Virus record (IMG/VR): IMGVR_UViG_3300026097_000029
Coordinates: 1 to 54,968 of that record
Strand: one strand, 5' to 3'
Source of the DNA: a virus
Lineage: Duplodnaviria > Caudoviricetes
Length of the DNA stretch: 54,968 nucleotides
Under the pieces are notes generated by a model. It had not been told where the DNA came from, searched no databases, and saw only the letters and a list, made by a program, of their open reading frames with translations. Every line of letters starts with the position of its first letter. Position 1 is the first letter of the stretch. Shown here in pieces: positions 29,043 to 54,968 of this stretch. Made by a program: the position numbers and the translations under genes.

Positions 29043-30508
29043 ATTGTTGTTCCGTTTCCGTTGTTATATAAATCGCTGTCTTGCTGCGCTGTTGTTTGTC
29101 CATTTATAAATGATACTTCGTCTATTTCTCCATTAAGAAATAGAGATGTTGATCCTGATTCTCCTAAAACAATAGCATTGTTAACACTTGGTTTATTTGT
29201 AAACGTATAAACTCCCTGTATCTGATTGTTTATTTTTAAAACAAAATCAATACCGTATTTTATTTGTATAAAATAATAATTACCAACAACATAGTTTAAT
29301 GTAGATAATATATCTTGAACACTACCATTATCTCCAAAAACAGCTCTTATTTTATTATTGTTTCTAAATTGGATATAAGTTTTTAGTTCTTCAAAATTAG
29401 AACCTACATCTTGTCCTATAATGTTACAAGTTTGATTTGAATTAGCCTTTGCCCAAAAAGATAATGTGAAGTTGTTGCTATCAAAATCATTATAGATAGA
29501 AGTAGGTAAATCCACCCTACCATCAACCCCATCAAAACTATAAGCATTGCCTATTTTACCAGTCACACCTTGCGTAACACCGCCAAACAAAGTACCGTTA
29601 TAAGAGTTAACTACGTCAATAGCATTTCCGCTTGTTTCTTCTAGCTTGTAGTAAGCAACTGCATTTTGGAATAGTGCTGGTGTTGTAGTTGTCGTTACAT
29701 TAATTGTGTTGGAATAATCTGAAATATTAAAATACTCATCTGCTAAAATGATTTTGACTTTGTATGTAGTTAGTTGTTGTAATTTAATAACATAAGGTTT
29801 ATTTACATCGGTTATATTTTGAAAAAAACCATTTACAAAAACTAAAGCATATTTTAAAGTATTAACGTGGGTAGGTTGCGTAAAGCCTAACTCGACATAA
29901 GTACCACCTATTGTTGTGGCTGATAAGTCTGTTACTGCGTTTGGTTTTGTATTTGCGTTAGGATTAGATGTATCTTTGTACAAAACGCTACCACCGTTGC
30001 CTATCAACTCTGTAATATCGCCATCTCCTGTTGTAGCTGAATCAATAATTAACTGCCCAAATGTTGAGCTTTCAAAAACCCTGTCGTCGCCTGTTGTACT
30101 ACCTATACTTGTAGCATTAGGAAAAGCCATAATTGCACCACCTAATCTCCTTAATGCAAAATCTTCTATTGCAGTTATAGCAGGCAAATAAATAAATATA
30201 TTTTGGTTTACTTGTAAAGATGCTCTATTGTTTATGCAATATCCTTCTAAATCTACAAAATAAGTCATATTTTTATCTACAAAATTTACCCCGATTGATA
30301 ATTCATAATTAGTTTCAATTCTAAAAGCTACATTTTCTCCATTAATTTCAAAATCTTTTATATCACTTGTAGAATAATTACTTGAATTTGCAAAATAACT
30401 AATAACATCTGATTCATTAGTAACTATTGATGCCACGCCACCCCAAAAAGTATTAAACCTTTTACCGCTTATATAATTAGCAAAAAAATTTAAAGATGGA
30501 CTTCTCAT
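29039..30508 (-). CDS. Fibre/receptor-binding protein with FN3-like and LamG domains
   Basis: PNAVTDLSAT (FN3-like), AYYKLEETSG, GKIGNAYSFDG, FTLSFW, GEIDEVSF, LYNNGNG. Confidence 0.75.
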   Translation of the reverse strand: MRSPSLNFFANYISGKRFNTFWGGVASIVTNESDVISYFANSSNYSTSDIKDFEINGENVAFRIETNYELSIGVNFVDKNMTYFVDLEGYCINNRASLQVNQNIFIYLPAITAIEDFALRRLGGAIMAFPNATSIGSTTGDDRVFESSTFGQLIIDSATTGDGDITELIGNGGSVLYKDTSNPNANTKPNAVTDLSATTIGGTYVELGFTQPTHVNTLKYALVFVNGFFQNITDVNKPYVIKLQQLTTYKVKIILADEYFNISDYSNTINVTTTTTPALFQNAVAYYKLEETSGNAIDVVNSYNGTLFGGVTQGVTGKIGNAYSFDGVDGRVDLPTSIYNDFDSNNFTLSFWAKANSNQTCNIIGQDVGSNFEELKTYIQFRNNNKIRAVFGDNGSVQDILSTLNYVVGNYYFIQIKYGIDFVLKINNQIQGVYTFTNKPSVNNAIVLGESGSTSLFLNGEIDEVSFINGQTTAQQDSDLYNNGNGTTI

Positions 30509-47882: not shown

Positions 47883-48395
47883 ATGAAACTAGAAATAAAT
47901 CTACCAATATTTAACGGCTTTTATGGTTCAATTCTAGAAGACTTAAGCAATCATCATGAAGCAGCCGAATTGTTTACTCAAGCAATAGAAAAAGAGCTTA
48001 AAAGAGACTTTAAAATAAGTTTAGAGCACAAAGAATTGATTAGACCAAGATTCTATAATTTTAATAACGATGTTATTTTAGTAGAATTAACTACTTATAA
48101 GTATGTAATAAAAGAGTTGTTTGAGCTTTGTCTAGATTGTTATAGACAGGAGTTTTTGGAATATATAAAACAACGGCTAACAAGCTACGATGGTTTCACA
48201 AGCTTTTATTCCAACACATTAGCAGGCTGGGAAAGATACAGGTATGAATTTTACAACTACGACCAAGATAAACAGGGTGCAATGCTTAACATTATCCTGG
48301 ATTTTTATTTGTCCGATATATGCGAGTACAATGAAAACGATTTAATGGAATACGCAAACCAAAACGGTGCTAAAATAAATGAAATAATTTACTAA
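47883..48395 (+). CDS. Early hypothetical phage protein
   Basis: FNGFYGS, RPRFYNFNND, TSYDGFTSFYSN motifs. Confidence 0.65.
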   Translation: MKLEINLPIFNGFYGSILEDLSNHHEAAELFTQAIEKELKRDFKISLEHKELIRPRFYNFNNDVILVELTTYKYVIKELFELCLDCYRQEFLEYIKQRLTSYDGFTSFYSNTLAGWERYRYEFYNYDQDKQGAMLNIILDFYLSDICEYNENDLMEYANQNGAKINEIIY

Positions 48396-49203: not shown

Positions 49204-49455
49204 ATGAACACAGAAAAAAGAATCGGAAACATAATATACGTACAACAAACAAATACCATCGAAGTAGTTGTTGATGAAGGCGTATATAATCAACGTACTA
49301 GAGAGAAGTGGTACAAGACAAATGAAGATAATTTTATCTTAAAACCGCATCAATTAGTTTTCTTAAATAGCATAGAAACAGTAAATACTATGCATAAAAT
49401 GGGTGCTAAAATGAGCGATAATACAAGAATATTAGTTGATAAGCTAAATAAATAA
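49204..49455 (+). CDS. Hypothetical protein
   Basis: 83-aa ORF with A-rich leader. Confidence 0.55.
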   Translation: MNTEKRIGNIIYVQQTNTIEVVVDEGVYNQRTREKWYKTNEDNFILKPHQLVFLNSIETVNTMHKMGAKMSDNTRILVDKLNK

Positions 49456-49633
49456 CTTTAATAAAGAACGAGTAGTGTGGCATAACAGCAAATAATATGG
49501 GTAGTGGCGATAAAAAGGGTTAACAGTATCGTATGCAAACCAATAACCCCGAAAAACACGGTGAAAGTCCAGTTGTTAGGCATACTTAGCCATTACCTAT
49601 ATTTATTATTGAATGTCTTTTTTAATTGCATAT

Positions 49634-49756
49634 AACGTTGAGTATATGGCAAGTAGCCGAGATAAAGCACAAACGATGCAAAAAGTAAACAAATTTAATA
49701 ACAGGCAGATGGTTCCAAAAAGACCCGTAACACGGCTATTTGCTATATACAGTGTT
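49634..49756 (+). repeat. attC-like hairpin
   Basis: GTATATGGCAAGTAGCCG (49642-49659) / CGGCTATTTGCTATATAC (49733-49750). Confidence 0.85.
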
Positions 49757-49773
49757 ATGTGGCGTTTTTAATT

Positions 49774-50016
49774 ATGGAAGTAGTAGATTTTAGTAACAGA
49801 TTATTTCACGATATACCAACACAGGACAATCCTGCTTACGGGAGTGAAGAGTGTATAATGATTGTAAAGGATAGCCAAAGACAAGCTTTATTTGCTGTAC
49901 TACATATTGAACCCGTAATAGACCCAATGGAAGACGAATCTGTTACTAAAATATGTGAGGTGTATAAACTTAATAATGCTATTAAGATTGCTAAGTGGTT
50001 CGCAAATGCCACATAA
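49774..50016 (+). CDS. Cassette-borne hypothetical protein
   Basis: ATG 49774; the TAA stop lies inside the terminal TAAC. Confidence 0.65.
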   Translation: MEVVDFSNRLFHDIPTQDNPAYGSEECIMIVKDSQRQALFAVLHIEPVIDPMEDESVTKICEVYKLNNAIKIAKWFANAT

Positions 50017-50061
50017 CATCTCGGTGCTATGAAATCGTTTTAATGTTTTATAGCACGTGTT
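50015..50061 (+). repeat. Minimal attC-like hairpin
   Basis: GTGCTATGAAA-TCGTTTTAATG-TTTTATAGCAC. Confidence 0.85.
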
Positions 50062-50163
50062 ACCCACTGGTGCGACTTTAAAGAGCAAACTTTTATTTAA
50101 GAACTGAAACTTTTTCTTTTCTTTTTTGAGCGTTGGCAAATATTAATTTGAAAAATTAAAATT

Positions 50164-50970
50164 ATGGAACAAATACAATTACACAAAGGATATTGCGAAG
50201 ATTACTTTACCCAAATACACGATAAAAGCGTAGATATGGTTCTTTGTGATTTACCTTACGGAACAACAGATTGTAAATGGGATAGTCAAATAGACTTGAC
50301 TTTTCTATTTAGCGAATATTACAGAGTGTTAAAAAAGAACGGTGCAATAGTGTTATTCGCTTCACAGCCCTTTACATCTACTTTGGTATGTGAACACGTT
50401 AAATACTTCAAGCACGAGTGGATATGGAAGAAAAACGCAGGAAGTAATTTTGGAACTGTAAAATACCAACCATTTAAAGAACACGAAAGCATACTTGTAT
50501 TTAGTAATGGAGGTGGGAAGGTTTGTTACAATCCTATAATGGAAGAACGTGCTGAAAGTGGTAAAGCGAGAGTAAAGACCAAGGTTAATTATAATACAAG
50601 TGCAGAAGTTTACGGAAGTGGTGGATTAATAGGCGATAAAGGAATAAGTAGTAATAGACCTGATTTAAGATACCCAAGTAGTGTACAGAAATTTAATAGA
50701 GAGCGAGGGTTACACCCAACACAAAAACCACTTGACTTGATAGAGTACTTAATTAAAACTTACTCTAACGAAGGCGAATTGATACTTGATAATACAATGG
50801 GAAGCGGTACTACTGGTGTTGGTTGTGTAAATACAAATAGACGATTTATAGGTATTGAGTTAGAAGATAAGTATTTTTCTATTGCAGAAGAACGAGTAAA
50901 AAAAGCGTGGGAAGAAAAAAGAAAAGAAAAAGATTTACAAGCACAAACTTTATTTGGAACACAGAAGTAA
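50164..50970 (+). CDS. DNA N6-adenine/N4-cytosine methyltransferase (beta class)
   Basis: CDLPYG, HPTQKPLDL, LDNTMGSGTTG. Confidence 0.9.
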   Translation: MEQIQLHKGYCEDYFTQIHDKSVDMVLCDLPYGTTDCKWDSQIDLTFLFSEYYRVLKKNGAIVLFASQPFTSTLVCEHVKYFKHEWIWKKNAGSNFGTVKYQPFKEHESILVFSNGGGKVCYNPIMEERAESGKARVKTKVNYNTSAEVYGSGGLIGDKGISSNRPDLRYPSSVQKFNRERGLHPTQKPLDLIEYLIKTYSNEGELILDNTMGSGTTGVGCVNTNRRFIGIELEDKYFSIAEERVKKAWEEKRKEKDLQAQTLFGTQK

Positions 50971-50982
50971 GCACTTGTTGGT

Positions 50983-51216
50983 AACACTATGGTTATATGA
51001 GTAGTTTATTTACGGATTTAAAAATAGAAATATGAAAACAGTTTTAATACATTATAAAAAATGGGTAGAAGCACCGCACCCAATGTTAGACGGTGAATTT
51101 ATTAAATGTAGCCAAGTGGTCGAAGTATTAAAGCTGACTGACCTAAATGATATGTTTAAAAATATAACTAAGATTGAAATACTAAGCGAGTAAATGAATT
51201 ACTTATATGACGTGTT
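50983..51216 (+). repeat. attC-like hairpin with an ORF in its loop
   Basis: 22-bp arms 50992-51013 / 51190-51211 with four G.T pairs. Confidence 0.85.
51032..51193 (+). CDS. 53-aa hypothetical protein inside a hairpin loop
   Basis: Read manually: MKTVLIHYKKWVEAPHP...KIEILSE; stop falls in the right arm. Confidence 0.6.
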   Translation: MKTVLIHYKKWVEAPHPMLDGEFIKCSQVVEVLKLTDLNDMFKNITKIEILSE

Positions 51217-51253
51217 GTGTGTAGTACGGGCAAATAAGCAAAAACTTTGAATT

Positions 51254-51802
51254 ATGAAATTAGATTTAATTACAAACAAAGCAGAAAAAACAACTGCACG
51301 AAATGAAAATGATGAGTTCTATACTCCAAATTATGCAATAGAGCCTTTGTTAAAATATTTAAAACCTAATAGTTATGTATGGTGTCCTTTTGATTTGGCG
51401 AAAAGTAACTTTGTAAAACTATTAGTTGCAAATGGGCATAAGGTTTTAAATACGCACATCGAAAACGGTTTTGACTTTTTTGAATATGAGCCACCAAGTG
51501 AAATTGATTACATAATAAGTAATCCGCCTTACTCACTAAAACATGAAGTATTTAGCAAACTGTTTGAATTAGGAAAACCATTTGCAATGCTTGTAGGTGT
51601 TGTTGGATTGTTTGAAAGCCAAAAAAGATTTACAATGTTTGCGGACAATGATTTTGAAATAATGTATTTTGATAAGCGAGTAAGTTACTTTAAGGATTAC
51701 GCAGACGTAAAGCCAAAACTTAACCCACCGTTTTCGAGTGTATTTTTAACAAAGGATATACTACCTAAACAAGTTGTTTTTGAAAGGATAACTAAAAAGT
51801 AG
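51254..51802 (+). CDS. Phage adenine methyltransferase-like protein
   Basis: DEFYTP, WCPFD, DFF, ISNPPYS motifs. Confidence 0.8.
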   Translation: MKLDLITNKAEKTTARNENDEFYTPNYAIEPLLKYLKPNSYVWCPFDLAKSNFVKLLVANGHKVLNTHIENGFDFFEYEPPSEIDYIISNPPYSLKHEVFSKLFELGKPFAMLVGVVGLFESQKRFTMFADNDFEIMYFDKRVSYFKDYADVKPKLNPPFSSVFLTKDILPKQVVFERITKK

Positions 51803-51812
51803 TATTACTCAC

Positions 51813-51898
51813 AACGGTAGGTATATGGTTAGTGCGCCTACCACAAACGATTGAATTAAGCACTAACATAACTTGGCGCATTAACTATATACATTGTT
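51813..51898 (+). repeat. attC-like hairpin
   Basis: GTATATGGTTAGTGCGCC / GGCGCATTAACTATATAC. Confidence 0.85.
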
Positions 51899-51920
51899 GT
51901 GTGCCGTTAATTTTAAGGAT

Positions 51921-52184
51921 ATGTTGAATATAGAAGCGGAAGGTTTTGTATTTAAGTATGAAGAAAAAGGCAATCATAACAAAGCCTACACAAAGCCGTA
52001 CACAAATCACTCAAGAGGGTATTCGGATAGAATGATTGATGTTATTTATAATGACAAAAACAATTGGGTATTAATTTGCCAAGGAGATGATGAAACCCCT
52101 TGGGGTGATTGGGAAACAATGTTTGCTGGACAAATACAAAACCAACAAGATTTTAAAAAAGTGCTTGAAATGGTCATCGTTTAA
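51921..52184 (+). CDS. Cassette-borne hypothetical protein
   Basis: ATG 51921; stop within the terminal repeat TTAATGGCACACAAC. Confidence 0.65.
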   Translation: MLNIEAEGFVFKYEEKGNHNKAYTKPYTNHSRGYSDRMIDVIYNDKNNWVLICQGDDETPWGDWETMFAGQIQNQQDFKKVLEMVIV

Positions 52185-52192
52185 TGGCACAC

Positions 52193-52315
52193 AACGGCTC
52201 AGTATAAAAAATCGTAGCGGATAGATACCGCTTAAATGTCAAATTATAAATAACTTAATAAAATGGAACAAACATCGAATAACAGAAACCCCCGCTATGT
52301 TTTTTATACATTGTT
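52193..52315 (+). repeat. attC-like hairpin
   Basis: GTATAAAAAATCGTAGCGG / CCGCTATGTTTTTTATAC. Confidence 0.85.
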
Positions 52316-52463
52316 GGCGGTAGTGCTTTTAATTACTGCCTGTTCGGGTGATAGCGAAAGTAGCTCACAATTTTCTGAATGGCTTAAACAACCGATAACA
52401 GAAATGAGCATATTTGAATTGATATTGGTTGTAGGTTTTGTTGGACTGCTTACACGGTCTTAG
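52263..52463 (+). CDS. Small putative lipoprotein reading through the site
   Basis: Hydrophobic stretch ending in lipobox-like ITAC; C-terminal TM helix. Confidence 0.55.
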   Translation: MEQTSNNRNPRYVFYTLLAVVLLITACSGDSESSSQFSEWLKQPITEMSIFELILVVGFVGLLTRS

Positions 52464-52473
52464 CATTACCGCC

Positions 52474-52586
52474 AACGTAATTGTATATGGTGCGTTGCAT
52501 CACAAAATTTAATTAATAAAAATAAAGATAATGGAAGTAGAAGAACGATATAAAAAACCACAAGGCAATGCACTATATACATTGTT
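52474..52586 (+). repeat. attC-like hairpin
   Basis: GTATATGGTGCGTTGC / GCAATGCACTATATAC. Confidence 0.85.
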
Positions 52587-52740
52587 AGCAGCAGTTAAAC
52601 TTGCTTATGGGCAATACAAACTTGATGTGGACTACGTAAAAAATAAAAGTAATATATGGGAAGGGAAGCCATATAGTTGGGGATTAACTCATTGGGCAAT
52701 AGCAAAACATAGGTTCTATTGGTTTGTCATTAAACGCTAA
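52531..52740 (+). CDS. Small hypothetical protein reading through the site
   Basis: Starts in the hairpin loop; ALYTLLAAV is encoded by the arm and GTT junction. Confidence 0.55.
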   Translation: MEVEERYKKPQGNALYTLLAAVKLAYGQYKLDVDYVKNKSNIWEGKPYSWGLTHWAIAKHRFYWFVIKR

Positions 52741-52748
52741 TTGCTGCT

Positions 52749-52805
52749 AACGGACGAGTATATGCGAAGTGCTGACGATAGGAAGCATTGCGTATATACA
52801 TTGTT
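52749..52805 (+). repeat. attC-like hairpin
   Basis: GTATATGCGAAGTGCT / AGCATTGCGTATATAC. Confidence 0.85.
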
Positions 52806-52841
52806 AGGTGCAGTACGGTATTAATATAACAAAACTAAAAT

Positions 52842-53606
52842 ATGAAACAAACAGAATTATTCTTATTTGACAAAGTAGTGAACATTGACGGAGATGTAGC
52901 GAAATTCAAAAACCGAGAGATAAAAGCAAAAGAAATCTTTACTATACGTGAGATTGACAAGAAAATAGCTTACGCATTTATTAAACAATACCACTACTTA
53001 AAAGATGCTAAGTTCTTTGCAAAATATTCTTATGGACTTTATATTGATAATGTACTAGTTGGCTGCTCTACTTTTAGCAACCCACAAGGTATAAGTGCAA
53101 TGAAAAGTTGGTTTGGATTACCTAATAGCGACCAAAGTGTATTAGAACTTAGCAGACTGTGTATGTTACCTAAACTTAATGGTACAAACGCAACAAGCTA
53201 TTTACTTGGCAATAGTATGAAGATGCTAAAACAAAAGGAAGTTAAGGCTGTAATTACATTAGCTGATGATAGTAGGCACGTTGGAAGTATTTACCAAGTT
53301 TGCAATTTTAAATACTATGGCTTAACTGATAAAAAAACTGATTTCTTTTGTGCTGATGGTAGAGTGAACCCAAGAGGCAAAACAAAGGATTTAGAAGGTG
53401 TTTGGCTACCAAGAACACAAAAGCATAGATACGCTTTTTTATTGGATAAGAAAATGAATGTTTTGCTGAGTGAGAGTGAACGACCTACACTTGAAGATAC
53501 AAGCGAATATGATTGCTGTAACGGAACTAATAAGGTTTTTGATAAGCGATTTAATAAGCACTACACTTGCCCAAAATGCACAGGTGTAATTGAAGAACTA
53601 ATGTAG
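52842..53606 (+). CDS. Mom-like (GNAT-fold) DNA modification protein
   Basis: QYHY, LELSRL, LADDSRHVGSIYQVCNFKYYG, KHRY. Confidence 0.75.
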   Translation: MKQTELFLFDKVVNIDGDVAKFKNREIKAKEIFTIREIDKKIAYAFIKQYHYLKDAKFFAKYSYGLYIDNVLVGCSTFSNPQGISAMKSWFGLPNSDQSVLELSRLCMLPKLNGTNATSYLLGNSMKMLKQKEVKAVITLADDSRHVGSIYQVCNFKYYGLTDKKTDFFCADGRVNPRGKTKDLEGVWLPRTQKHRYAFLLDKKMNVLLSESERPTLEDTSEYDCCNGTNKVFDKRFNKHYTCPKCTGVIEELM

Positions 53607-53616
53607 TATTGCACCT

Positions 53617-53806
53617 AACTGGTCGGTGATAACGCTAGTTGCGATGGATTAATAAACTAAAAATAAAAAAAATGGATATAGATAAAATAGTAGATAGCAA
53701 AGTGATAACAATGACTAATTTAAGCGGTAAAAAATCAAAAGTGCTATTTCTTAAAAACGAAACTGAAATAGAAGCATTTAAAGAGCAATTAGCGTTATTA
53801 CGTGTT
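53617..53806 (+). repeat. attC-like hairpin
   Basis: GTGATAACGCTAGTTGC / GCAATTAGCGTTATTAC. Confidence 0.85.
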
Positions 53807-53917
53807 AGTTGCCAAAGGGAACAGTTAAAGGCGTTCGGTGAAATTATAGCACAAAAAATGCATAATGGAGAAGAATTCAATTTAACAAAAGAAGTAGAAA
53901 ACTTTATTAGCCTTTAA
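53672..53917 (+). CDS. Hypothetical protein reading through the site
   Basis: ATG 53672 in the loop; QLALLRVSC is encoded by the arm and junction. Confidence 0.55.
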   Translation: MDIDKIVDSKVITMTNLSGKKSKVLFLKNETEIEAFKEQLALLRVSCQREQLKAFGEIIAQKMHNGEEFNLTKEVENFISL

Positions 53918-53925
53918 TTGCAACT

Positions 53926-54829
53926 AACGTATTGGTATATGGTTAGTGCCGTGTAAATAGCACAGACTTTTAAATTAATAAAAGAAGTAATAATTAAAAT
54001 ATTTTTTATGAGCGTGGGCAAAAAATATAAAGTAGTTGAAGTAACTTTAAATGATATAGAAGAATGGCTATTGTATAAGCACTATGCCAAAAGAAAATGC
54101 AATGTAATGTTTGCTTATGCTTTAGTTGATAATAATGAAATTATTGGTGTTTGTACTTTAGGTATGCCACCTACTCCATTTTTTAGTAAATTGTTTGATA
54201 AAGGGACTTACTTAGAATTAAACAGACTAATAACAAATGATGGTCTACCTAAAAATACACTTTCTTTTTTTGTCGCAAATATTTTAAATAAGATAGGTGA
54301 TTATGTGGTTGTTTCTTATTCTGACCCAAATAACGGACATAATGGATATATTTATCAAGCTACTAATTGGATTTATACTGGTGCAGGTAGGGTAAACCAA
54401 AAAGACAAAAGAGGTGTAAATAAGTTTTTTTACAATGGTAAAGAATACCACGAAAGGCATATACCAGAAACAATGTCAAGATTAGGATTTAATATAGATA
54501 ATGATAAAACAAAAAACGAAAATTGGATAAATAACGGTGGTGAGATAGTACCACAAAAAAGAAAACATAGGTATTTTTATATTTGCGGTAATAAAAGGTT
54601 TGTAAAAAAGAACAAGAAAATAATAGAAAATTATTTTGACATTTACAATTACCCAAAAGAAGAGAATACAAACTATGATGCAAGTTATATTGTAAAAAAC
54701 AAATATATAAAACCTAAATTGTTTTGATAAAAACAAAAGAGCGTGGGCAAAAAAATATTTTAATTATGGACAAACAGACACAAATTATTGAATTAAGCAC
54801 GGACTTAGGCATTAACTATATGCCGTGTT
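53926..54829 (+). repeat. attC-like hairpin split by a nested gene insertion
   Basis: GGTATATGGTTAGTGCC (53934-53950) / GGCATTAACTATATGCC (54808-54824). Confidence 0.8.
54008..54727 (+). CDS. Mom-like (GNAT-fold) DNA modification protein
   Basis: KHYAKR, LELNRL, SYSDPNNGHNGYIYQATNWIYTG, KHRY. Confidence 0.8.
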   Translation: MSVGKKYKVVEVTLNDIEEWLLYKHYAKRKCNVMFAYALVDNNEIIGVCTLGMPPTPFFSKLFDKGTYLELNRLITNDGLPKNTLSFFVANILNKIGDYVVVSYSDPNNGHNGYIYQATNWIYTGAGRVNQKDKRGVNKFFYNGKEYHERHIPETMSRLGFNIDNDKTKNENWINNGGEIVPQKRKHRYFYICGNKRFVKKNKKIIENYFDIYNYPKEENTNYDASYIVKNKYIKPKLF

Positions 54830-54888
54830 GTAGCATCGTTTTAATGTGCTACAACACCGAATAACAAAACATTAAAAACATTAACCCT

Positions 54889-54968
54889 ATGAAACTACTT
54901 GAAAACGTTGCGGAAAGATATATTGAAAGTTCTAATAAAGGAGCAATAAATTATACAGATGAGCTTAA
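54889..54968 (+). CDS. 5' end of a hypothetical protein truncated by the window edge
   Basis: ATG 54889 after A-rich leader; open to the end of the window. Confidence 0.45.
   Translation, partial: MKLLENVAERYIESSNKGAINYTDEL

Follow-up and report, generated by a model that had tools for sequence, protein, structure and literature searches.

A putatively mobile, integron-like cassette array in a phage genome and a related class of sites in Bacteroidota

Introduction

Integrons (the IntI/attI/attC systems, such as class 1 integrons and the Vibrio superintegron) are the described systems that most resemble the gene-cassette arrays analyzed here, which lie in a 54,968-nt stretch of phage DNA (Caudoviricetes; IMG/VR record IMGVR_UViG_3300026097_000029, of which this stretch, hereafter the window, is the whole). 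Both have single-gene cassettes whose start is complementary to their own end, a conserved GTT/AAC core in which AAC is followed by G, a pair of inverted boxes flanking an unpaired spacer, a variable loop, a fixed end site and, in the host arrays described below, an adjacent tyrosine recombinase with PF13495 and PF00589 domains. It is quite probable that the main array of the window is a mobile cassette array that gains and loses units within AAC, most likely by single-strand hairpin recombination through a tyrosine recombinase that is IntI-like but without the integron-specific insertion and that probably comes from a Bacteroidota host. The feature works like an integron, yet departs from that class in three properties, namely the integrase insertion, the extrahelical bases, and the polarity of the phage genes.

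Single-strand cassette recombination is attributed to the integron-specific insertion and the extrahelical bases of attC; a system with neither would be a second solution to the same problem. In the accessible parts of their papers, Cury et al. judged recombinases without this domain not to be IntI, and Smyshlyaev et al. found the insertion to be not fully conserved in an integron-like subgroup. The available sections of the IntegronFinder 2.0 survey give Bacteroidetes only In0 elements and one Salinibacter integron, and the available text of Ghaly et al. names Bacteroidota among the integron-bearing phyla. De novo formation of cassettes is called largely unknown in the accessible part of PMC5371416.

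The nearest precedent in a phage is that of Polaribacter phage P12002L, for which Qi et al. (2023, PMC9892861; available sections, also below) reported a cluster of attC sites lacking integron-integrases (CALIN) with methylases, its attC1 being detected by HattCI alone. This attC1 belongs to the same site class as the sites of the window: it reads AAC-N6-arm-TCGTTTTAATG-arm'-ATT-GTT on the gene-sense strand, the cargo of its locus likewise comprises methylases, and the loop motif TCGTTTTAATG is also present in unit 2 of the window. In those sections the site is taken as a canonical attC and divergent sites are reported, whereas the long stems, the G·T pair, the terminal site and the host enzyme are not described. 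An earlier sequence-only reading of the window knew of no such array in a phage; a site of this anatomy had thus been listed as attC, and no description of the Bacteroidota system itself was found in print, in a literature mostly without subscription journals.

Results

Anatomy of the arrays and their sites

Ten AAC-ending units cover positions 49487-54855 end to end without gaps, as the sequence-only reading had claimed, and the five pairs of cassette-specific stems that it quoted are present (49754/50017, 51896/52195, 52313/52476, 52584/52751, and 52803/53619), as are the hairpins of the form AAC-N5/6-arm...arm'-N2/3-GTT between them. Each unit consists of such a hairpin followed by a body of the form GTT-stem...gene...stem'-AAC, and the arrays end at a fixed site that different cassettes abut. 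Stop codons fall inside the terminal stem or 1 nt ahead of it in all eight gene-bearing bodies, and the 14-bp stems are longer than the 7-nt integron core, both in line with what had been noticed earlier. Overlooked at that time were the invariant G·T pair of the stems, a second array at the contig start (1-1455), the end motif shared by both arrays (AAC followed by ACCGAATAAC), and two whole genes within hairpin loops (51032-51193 and 54008-54727).

Apart from a G·T pair at position 11, five of the nine bodies of the main array pair perfectly over 14 bp; a single mismatch beyond the G·T is present in body C, and two in body B. The stretch 49401-54900 contains six stems of this G·T type, compared with 0.04 on average and never more than 1 in 200 dinucleotide shuffles. 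In a census of 3.3 Mb of fetched loci, which had been collected by motif or protein and not selected on position 11, a G·T or A·C pair at this position was the sole mismatch in 249 of 337 near-perfect 14-bp GTT...AAC stems (15 were perfect), although in one search pattern, with 19 matches, the T of this pair was preset, which tells against the interpretation; 0.34 Mb of control DNA yielded zero stems with this mismatch. Judged by these counts, the G·T pair at position 11 is a selected feature of the sites.

Across 201 junctions, G directly follows AAC in 99%, as it likewise does in attC R' (PMC2727003, accessible part), and the inner arm has a conserved T (99%) paired as G·T. The outer and inner boxes are alike in form and the spacer is asymmetric, the AAC side being 2-4 nt longer. 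Ten of the 11 window hairpins pair gap-free, with G·T pairs in place of extrahelical bases; some Muminvirus arms have a single bulge, so bulges occur but are not conserved. Compared with integrons, the boxes have 12-14 bp and a G·T pair instead of 7 bp and extrahelical bases, the spacer has 5-7 versus 2-4 nt, the loops reach ~850 nt and hold whole genes, and the self-complementarity of a cassette extends over 14 bp instead of the 9-11 nt quoted in the accessible part of PMC2727003. The + (gene-sense) strand folded more stably at all six window junctions tested. As a separate observation, several host terminal sites (L435-L454) are short hairpins with ATT where internal sites carry GTT.

Exchange within AAC

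Gain, loss or replacement of cassettes was seen at nine distinct points in Muminvirus and Lillamyvirus isolates (8 records, 12 pairs), all at TAAC and several at the terminal junction. Furthermore, 555 distinct parsed cassettes, with duplicates removed, were compared in pairs. Where homologous bodies had at least 97% identity, 11 pairs (8 clusters) had only the upstream hairpin in common, 8 pairs had both flanks and 1 pair neither, and no pair had only the downstream flank; at 80-97% identity (48 pairs), the corresponding numbers were 11, 2, 35, and 0. Over all identity bins, sharing of the downstream flank alone was therefore seen in 0 of 68 pairs, compared with 22 for the upstream flank alone. 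On the left, the letters in common shrink to as few as 3 (11 of 49 pairs), and on the right to 0 (7 of 19), so that the recent crossover falls inside AAC, with the A/C bond itself being below the resolution of these comparisons. Given breakpoints in AAC and a hairpin that moves with its downstream gene, the fast-moving unit, by comparative genomics, is the upstream hairpin plus the downstream GTT...AAC body, which amounts to an integron cassette in which the polarity of the gene is reversed. Metagenomic contigs point to the same places: contigs of three independent runs begin or end their match to the window at the AAC of 49484, 51811-51815, 53619 or 54855, with contigs of runs X2 and X5 ending at 51815 (most contig joints had short sides or inserts of unread sequence and were not used), and in the relative L476 a different cassette occupies the same terminal site as in the window.

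The sequence-only reading had proposed a different unit, with the GTT...AAC body alone being mobile, both of its ends recombining about equally and the hairpins serving as independent spacers. It is favored by the 35 of 48 pairs at 80-97% identity in which the stems are kept while both flanks differ, by L481, which matches the window over 51213-51815, and by L332, which carries the unit 7 body (93% nucleotide identity) behind another upstream hairpin, with identity ending exactly at 53619; moreover, attC without extrahelical bases partly loses strand choice (PMC2727003, accessible part). Equal use of both ends is contradicted by the complete lack of pairs sharing the downstream flank alone and by the isolates, in which nine of nine recent events break at TAAC, and this version is thus considered improbable, at about the level of a long shot. 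What stands of the earlier proposal is that the cassettes are mobile and shufflable and that AAC is a recombination point; GTT would be a boundary only for slower exchange of hairpins.

Such slower exchange is suggested by cases in which hairpin and body have parted. Besides the 35 pairs just mentioned, units 3 and 7 have other upstream hairpins in relatives at 88-95% nucleotide identity, one hairpin precedes different bodies in mumin6-1 and morran9-1 (one short match), and L091 and L476 share a hairpin and stem start with the window and differ afterwards. These separations are not explained by exchange at AAC only and weigh against the explanation preferred here, as do the points gathered in the section on the proposed mechanism; on sequence comparison, a slower process also swaps hairpins at or near GTT over longer times. 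Separately, one small cassette occurs twice in one array of L229 (2199-2306 and 9036-9143, oriented coordinates), with the same upstream hairpin and different downstream neighbors.

Host arrays and the associated recombinase

The site class is not phage-specific. A site pattern matched 98 GTDB stretches, and Bacteroidota appeared in 70 of the 80 titles listed (an AT-rich site pattern returned mostly array-free loci); by these matches, the class is common to Bacteroidota chromosomes, mostly with the classical gene polarity, and the earlier view of the array as a phage system needs correction on this point. In host loci, the genes of 75 cassettes run antisense to the G·T strand and those of 49 sense, with 45 unassigned, and the sense examples inspected were largely phage-like methylases; methylase cassettes of phage polarity were found within host-polarity arrays in L194 and L226. 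In phage loci, 64 genes are sense, 3 antisense and 15 unassigned, which places the hairpin upstream of the gene. Thus, the gene-before-attC order of integrons is found in the host arrays but not in the phages.

One tyrosine recombinase family recurs at nine loci, so that the co-occurring recombinase called for by the sequence-only reading exists in hosts and in some phages. The array-adjacent enzymes contain PF13495 and PF00589 and hit TIGR02249 in two pieces at 169-207 bits, under the cut-off of 265; compared with VchIntIA (2A3V), ~42 residues of the integron-specific insertion are absent. The family was present in 66 of 81 Flavobacteriaceae genomes. Chained cassettes were detected in 15 of 20 host recombinase regions, a non-random set chosen on long contigs from 17 genomes (which is counted against the interpretation), compared with 0 of 20 control regions on these contigs; in 11 of 13 regions with a called open reading frame (ORF), 28-151 nt separate the last AAC from the recombinase gene. 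Genes in the 20 regions are nearly all of classical polarity and, in a further difference from integrons, the host integrase is mostly co-oriented with the cassettes. Among the 80 best viral recombinase loci, seven (two of them near-identical) have phage-polarity arrays directly upstream of the gene.

Archaeal XerA and the XerC/XerD recombinases act on dif sites in dimer resolution. They are the best sequence and fold neighbors of the catalytic domain of the array enzymes and likewise have no insertion. However, in a quick tree of 46 proteins without canonical IntI, the array enzymes form a branch separate from the XerC/D-like proteins of their hosts (SH-aLRT 100), and the N- and C-terminal matches of the array enzymes are IntI-like. 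An AlphaFold model (pTM 0.50) gave a tyrosine-recombinase fold and nothing further.

It is also conceivable that the sites are ordinary attC (a CALIN) and that canonical integron integrases of other bacteria move them. The GTT/AAC core, the G after AAC and the self-complementarity of cassettes are held in common, and attC2 of the P12002L locus recombined with IntI1 (PMC9892861). On the other hand, in the same paper the true hairpin site, attC1, failed to recombine with IntI1, and attC2 is the terminal site of the array read in the opposite direction: the two arrays of P12002L (L001) end in an identical terminal site, AAC followed by AACGGATAAAAC, at 29187 and 37213, which is similar to that of the window and is the published attC2 backwards, as located via an inner stretch of attC2. 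In view of the asymmetric spacer, the lack of a conserved extrahelical base in the window arms and adjacent enzymes that have no insertion and score below the TIGR02249 cut-off, this possibility appears very remote.

The polarity data also bear on an explanation in which stems and hairpins are RNA structures, such as processing or translation signals, and mosaicism arises from ERF-type homologous recombination at conserved linkers. In the phages the G·T pairs are on the transcribed-sense strand and would be G·U in RNA, several ORFs begin inside hairpins, and the relative L476 encodes an ERF annealing protein and an exonuclease. In host arrays, however, the G·T strand is mostly antisense to the genes, and nearly always so in the 20 recombinase regions, so that the structure would follow the geometry of the recombinase and not the transcript; in addition, three shared letters suffice for exchange. 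An Rfam scan of the window and two Flavobacterium phage arrays (gathering and E-value thresholds) gave nothing relevant, and no terminator-like site was found on the + strand. Such a purely RNA-based origin is hence unlikely, slightly more so than the body-only unit. A sigma-70 promoter scan produced matches at or below chance, and no RNA holder was listed, which carries no information about expression. The Flavo-1 RNA motif (RF01705), a hairpin repeat widespread in Flavobacteriaceae in either orientation, is a likeness; it was rejected as an identity because its sequence differs and it had no hit in the Rfam scan.

Origin of the cassettes

Homologues of the cargo genes are mostly found without the flanking stems, that is, unframed. 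Frames were present at 8 of 56 loci with Mom-like homologues (58 found, 2 partial ones left out), at 6 of 22 with homologues of the unit 3 methyltransferase (26 found, those below 60% left out), and at 7 of 38 with homologues of the 198-680 methylase (from 80 kept, those below 70% left out); in L333 the frame is absent from a gene with 87% DNA identity to that of unit 7. In a tree of 35 Mom-like proteins, from which near-duplicate loci and one with a stop were left out, the seven framed members need at least three changes and a single clade was rejected (p-AU 1e-59). As the framed Mom-like proteins do not form one clade and their groups carry different stems, repeated capture is favored; L347 has a decayed frame, consistent with loss. 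Apparently, cargo genes have been framed several times by repeated capture, or frames have been lost. The sequence-only reading had taken homologues without their own stems as a sign against mobility; most are indeed of this kind, which is read here as repeated capture or loss of frames instead of immobility.

A second gene-loading route may be marked by the motif GAGCG(T/G)(T/G)GGC, which recurs in or beside cassettes of other loci at 11 places. Exact 16-nt direct repeats bracket the second Mom-like gene (54008-54727) within its hairpin loop, and in one contig of the likely source run 54005 is joined to 54752 across this gene, the letters between being not known. As observations in their own right, the motif, with T-rich and A-rich arms, flanks the genes at 54008-54727 and 50128-50935, and GAGCGTGGGC repeats surround loop-borne genes. 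In L338 (3093-3797), a Mom-like homologue (78% amino acid identity to that of unit 7) occupies a hairpin loop whose arms match window 52482-52581; since its counterpart in unit 7 is in the body, one gene family can occupy either the body or the loop.

In a broader form, Bacteroidota and their lytic phages would have in common a second cassette system that does not depend on IntI, with G·T pairs instead of extrahelical bases signaling the strand, and phages would reverse the polarity and repeatedly build cassettes from their own ordinary genes, either between stems or in the loop. The chances of this are about even; if true, de novo cassette formation would be visible between sequences that are 85-90% identical.

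Proposed mechanism and significance

In the mobile-array explanation, the gene-sense strand would fold into two equivalent boxes of 12-14 bp, each with a G·T pair, around an unpaired spacer of 5-7/2-4 nt. The choice of strand would depend on the G·T pairs (A·C on the opposite strand), which would replace the extrahelical bases of attC, and the cut would fall at AA^C, the position used on the bottom strand of attC. After cutting, cassettes would leave as circles and enter at the terminal site, which may be called docking-like or attI-like by analogy. The terminal site of the phage stands at the promoter-distal end, and its genes therefore run opposite to those of classical integrons. Probably, either the choice of strand is leaky or ERF-type annealing accounts for the slower hairpin swaps. 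Both folding and excision increase if lagging-strand synthesis uses the recombinogenic strand as its template (Loot et al., PMC5371416, accessible part), and because of this effect the reverse polarity might raise shuffling in early regions of phages. The likely benefit would be fast turnover of anti-restriction methylases and Mom-like enzymes.

Several observations speak against this explanation. No tyrosine recombinase was found in the window, either among its 59 ORFs or by profile search, in agreement with the earlier statement that it contains no integrase; the three isolate phages P12002L, mumin6-1 and morran9-1 likewise have no such recombinase, and none of the 20 ORFs in the bridging part of L476 encodes one. 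A host enzyme would thus be the likely agent. Chained cassettes were lacking at 73 of the 80 viral and 5 of the 20 host recombinase loci, fold z-scores of the + strand were modest (-1.1 to -2.9 at the six junctions), and no circle junctions were seen in contigs, which drop rare variants.

If correct, the explanation would add a large and overlooked platform of gene exchange, present in about four fifths of the Flavobacteriaceae genomes searched and apparently missed by IntegronFinder, and in phages it would explain the fast turnover of methylases. One methylase difference among Muminvirus phages was tied to plating efficiency in the available part of Nilsson et al. (PMC7077304), in whose main text the words 'cassette' and 'integrase' do not occur. 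That cargo homologues are mostly unframed and apparently were framed several times bears on how cassettes arise, and framed and unframed copies of one gene, as close as 87% nucleotide identity, make cassette genesis testable in culturable phages and hosts.

Units of the two arrays

All features are on the + strand, and 6 of the 13 ORFs of the cargo encode DNA methyltransferases or Mom-like enzymes. The most upstream (distal) unit of the main array (49487-49636) is decayed, with a hairpin at ~49494-49603, ATT instead of GTT and a short AAC-ending remnant; the match of a run X2 contig begins at 49484. The loop of this hairpin holds CGGTGAAAGTCC at 49555-49572, which resembles the 5' motif of group II introns, probably by chance as there was no Rfam match. 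Unit 1 (49637-50017) has a hairpin at 49642-49750 and a body at 49754-50017 with an 80-aa ORF of no known family (49774-50016). Unit 2 (50018-50985) combines a short hairpin (50024-50056), whose loop contains TCGTTTTAATG, with a body (50059-50985) encoding an N6/N4 DNA methyltransferase (50164-50970). In unit 3 (50986-51815), the loop of the hairpin (50992-51211) holds a 53-aa ORF (51032-51193) and the body (51214-51815) a DNA methyltransferase gene (51254-51802); five loci at 92-96% amino acid identity retain the frame of this body, with different flanks.

Unit 4 (51816-52195) comprises a hairpin (51821-51892) and a body (51896-52195) with an 87-aa ORF (51921-52184); in L091 the hairpin and stems are alike from AAC on and the sequences part after the stem. 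Three ORFs begin inside hairpin loops, in units 5, 6 and 8. That of unit 5 (52196-52476; hairpin and body 52313-52476) encodes 66 aa (52263-52463) and reads through the site, which encodes part of a hydrophobic stretch ending in LITAC that resembles, by eye, a lipoprotein signal peptide. Unit 6 (52477-52751) has a hairpin at 52482-52581, a body at 52584-52751 and a 69-aa ORF (52531-52740), and unit 8 (53620-53928) has a hairpin at 53626-53801, a degenerate body (H, 53804-53928) and an 81-aa ORF (53672-53917). Between them, unit 7 (52752-53619) consists of a hairpin (52758-52799) and a body (52803-53619) with a Mom-like DNA-modification gene (52842-53606). Unit 9 (53929-54855) is mostly hairpin (53934-54824), its loop carrying the second Mom-like gene between the direct repeats GAGCGTGGGCAAAAAA, and its body (I, 54827-54855) is an empty 29 nt. 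The terminal docking-like junction, AAC followed by ACCGAATAAC, is located at 54853-54866, and in a 98%-identical relative another cassette abuts it.

In array 2, the first unit seen (1-694) contains the 3' part of a loop-borne ORF and the right arm, followed by a body (155-694) with a DNA methyltransferase gene (198-680); its left arm is visible in the relative L476. The last unit (695-1455) has a hairpin at 701-753 and a body with a bulged stem (756-1455) encoding an N6/N4 methyltransferase (795-1442), and the second terminal junction is at 1453-1465. Three of the six DNA-modifying enzymes (795-1442, 50164-50970, and 54008-54727) have the C-termini QQTLF, QAQTLFGTQK or KPKLF, which we take to resemble sliding-clamp-binding peptides.

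Phage genome and likely host

The record is classed in IMG/VR as linear and 88% complete, and its 59 scanned ORFs include those for terminase, portal, virion proteins, GroEL/ES and thymidylate synthase. As the terminase shares 60% identity with its counterpart in Flavobacterium Elemovirus phages, the host is likely to belong to Flavobacteria, within the Flavobacteriaceae. Elemovirus is the closest annotated backbone and had no cassettes in 36.7 kb examined out of 61.7 kb, and a search for relatives via the flanking gene at 47883-48395 found none. The metagenome contig L476 joins the window end (98% over 131 nt) to the window start (99% over 167 nt) through a module of ~9.5 kb with replication genes (exonuclease, ERF, replication initiator, and AAA protein). 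The ORF cut by the contig end (from 54888) was considered as the start of an integrase and rejected, since in L476 it encodes a protein of 77 aa that belongs to no family, with the exonuclease gene coming next. GroEL and two GroES-like proteins are encoded by the phage at 23836-24390 and 36517-38357.

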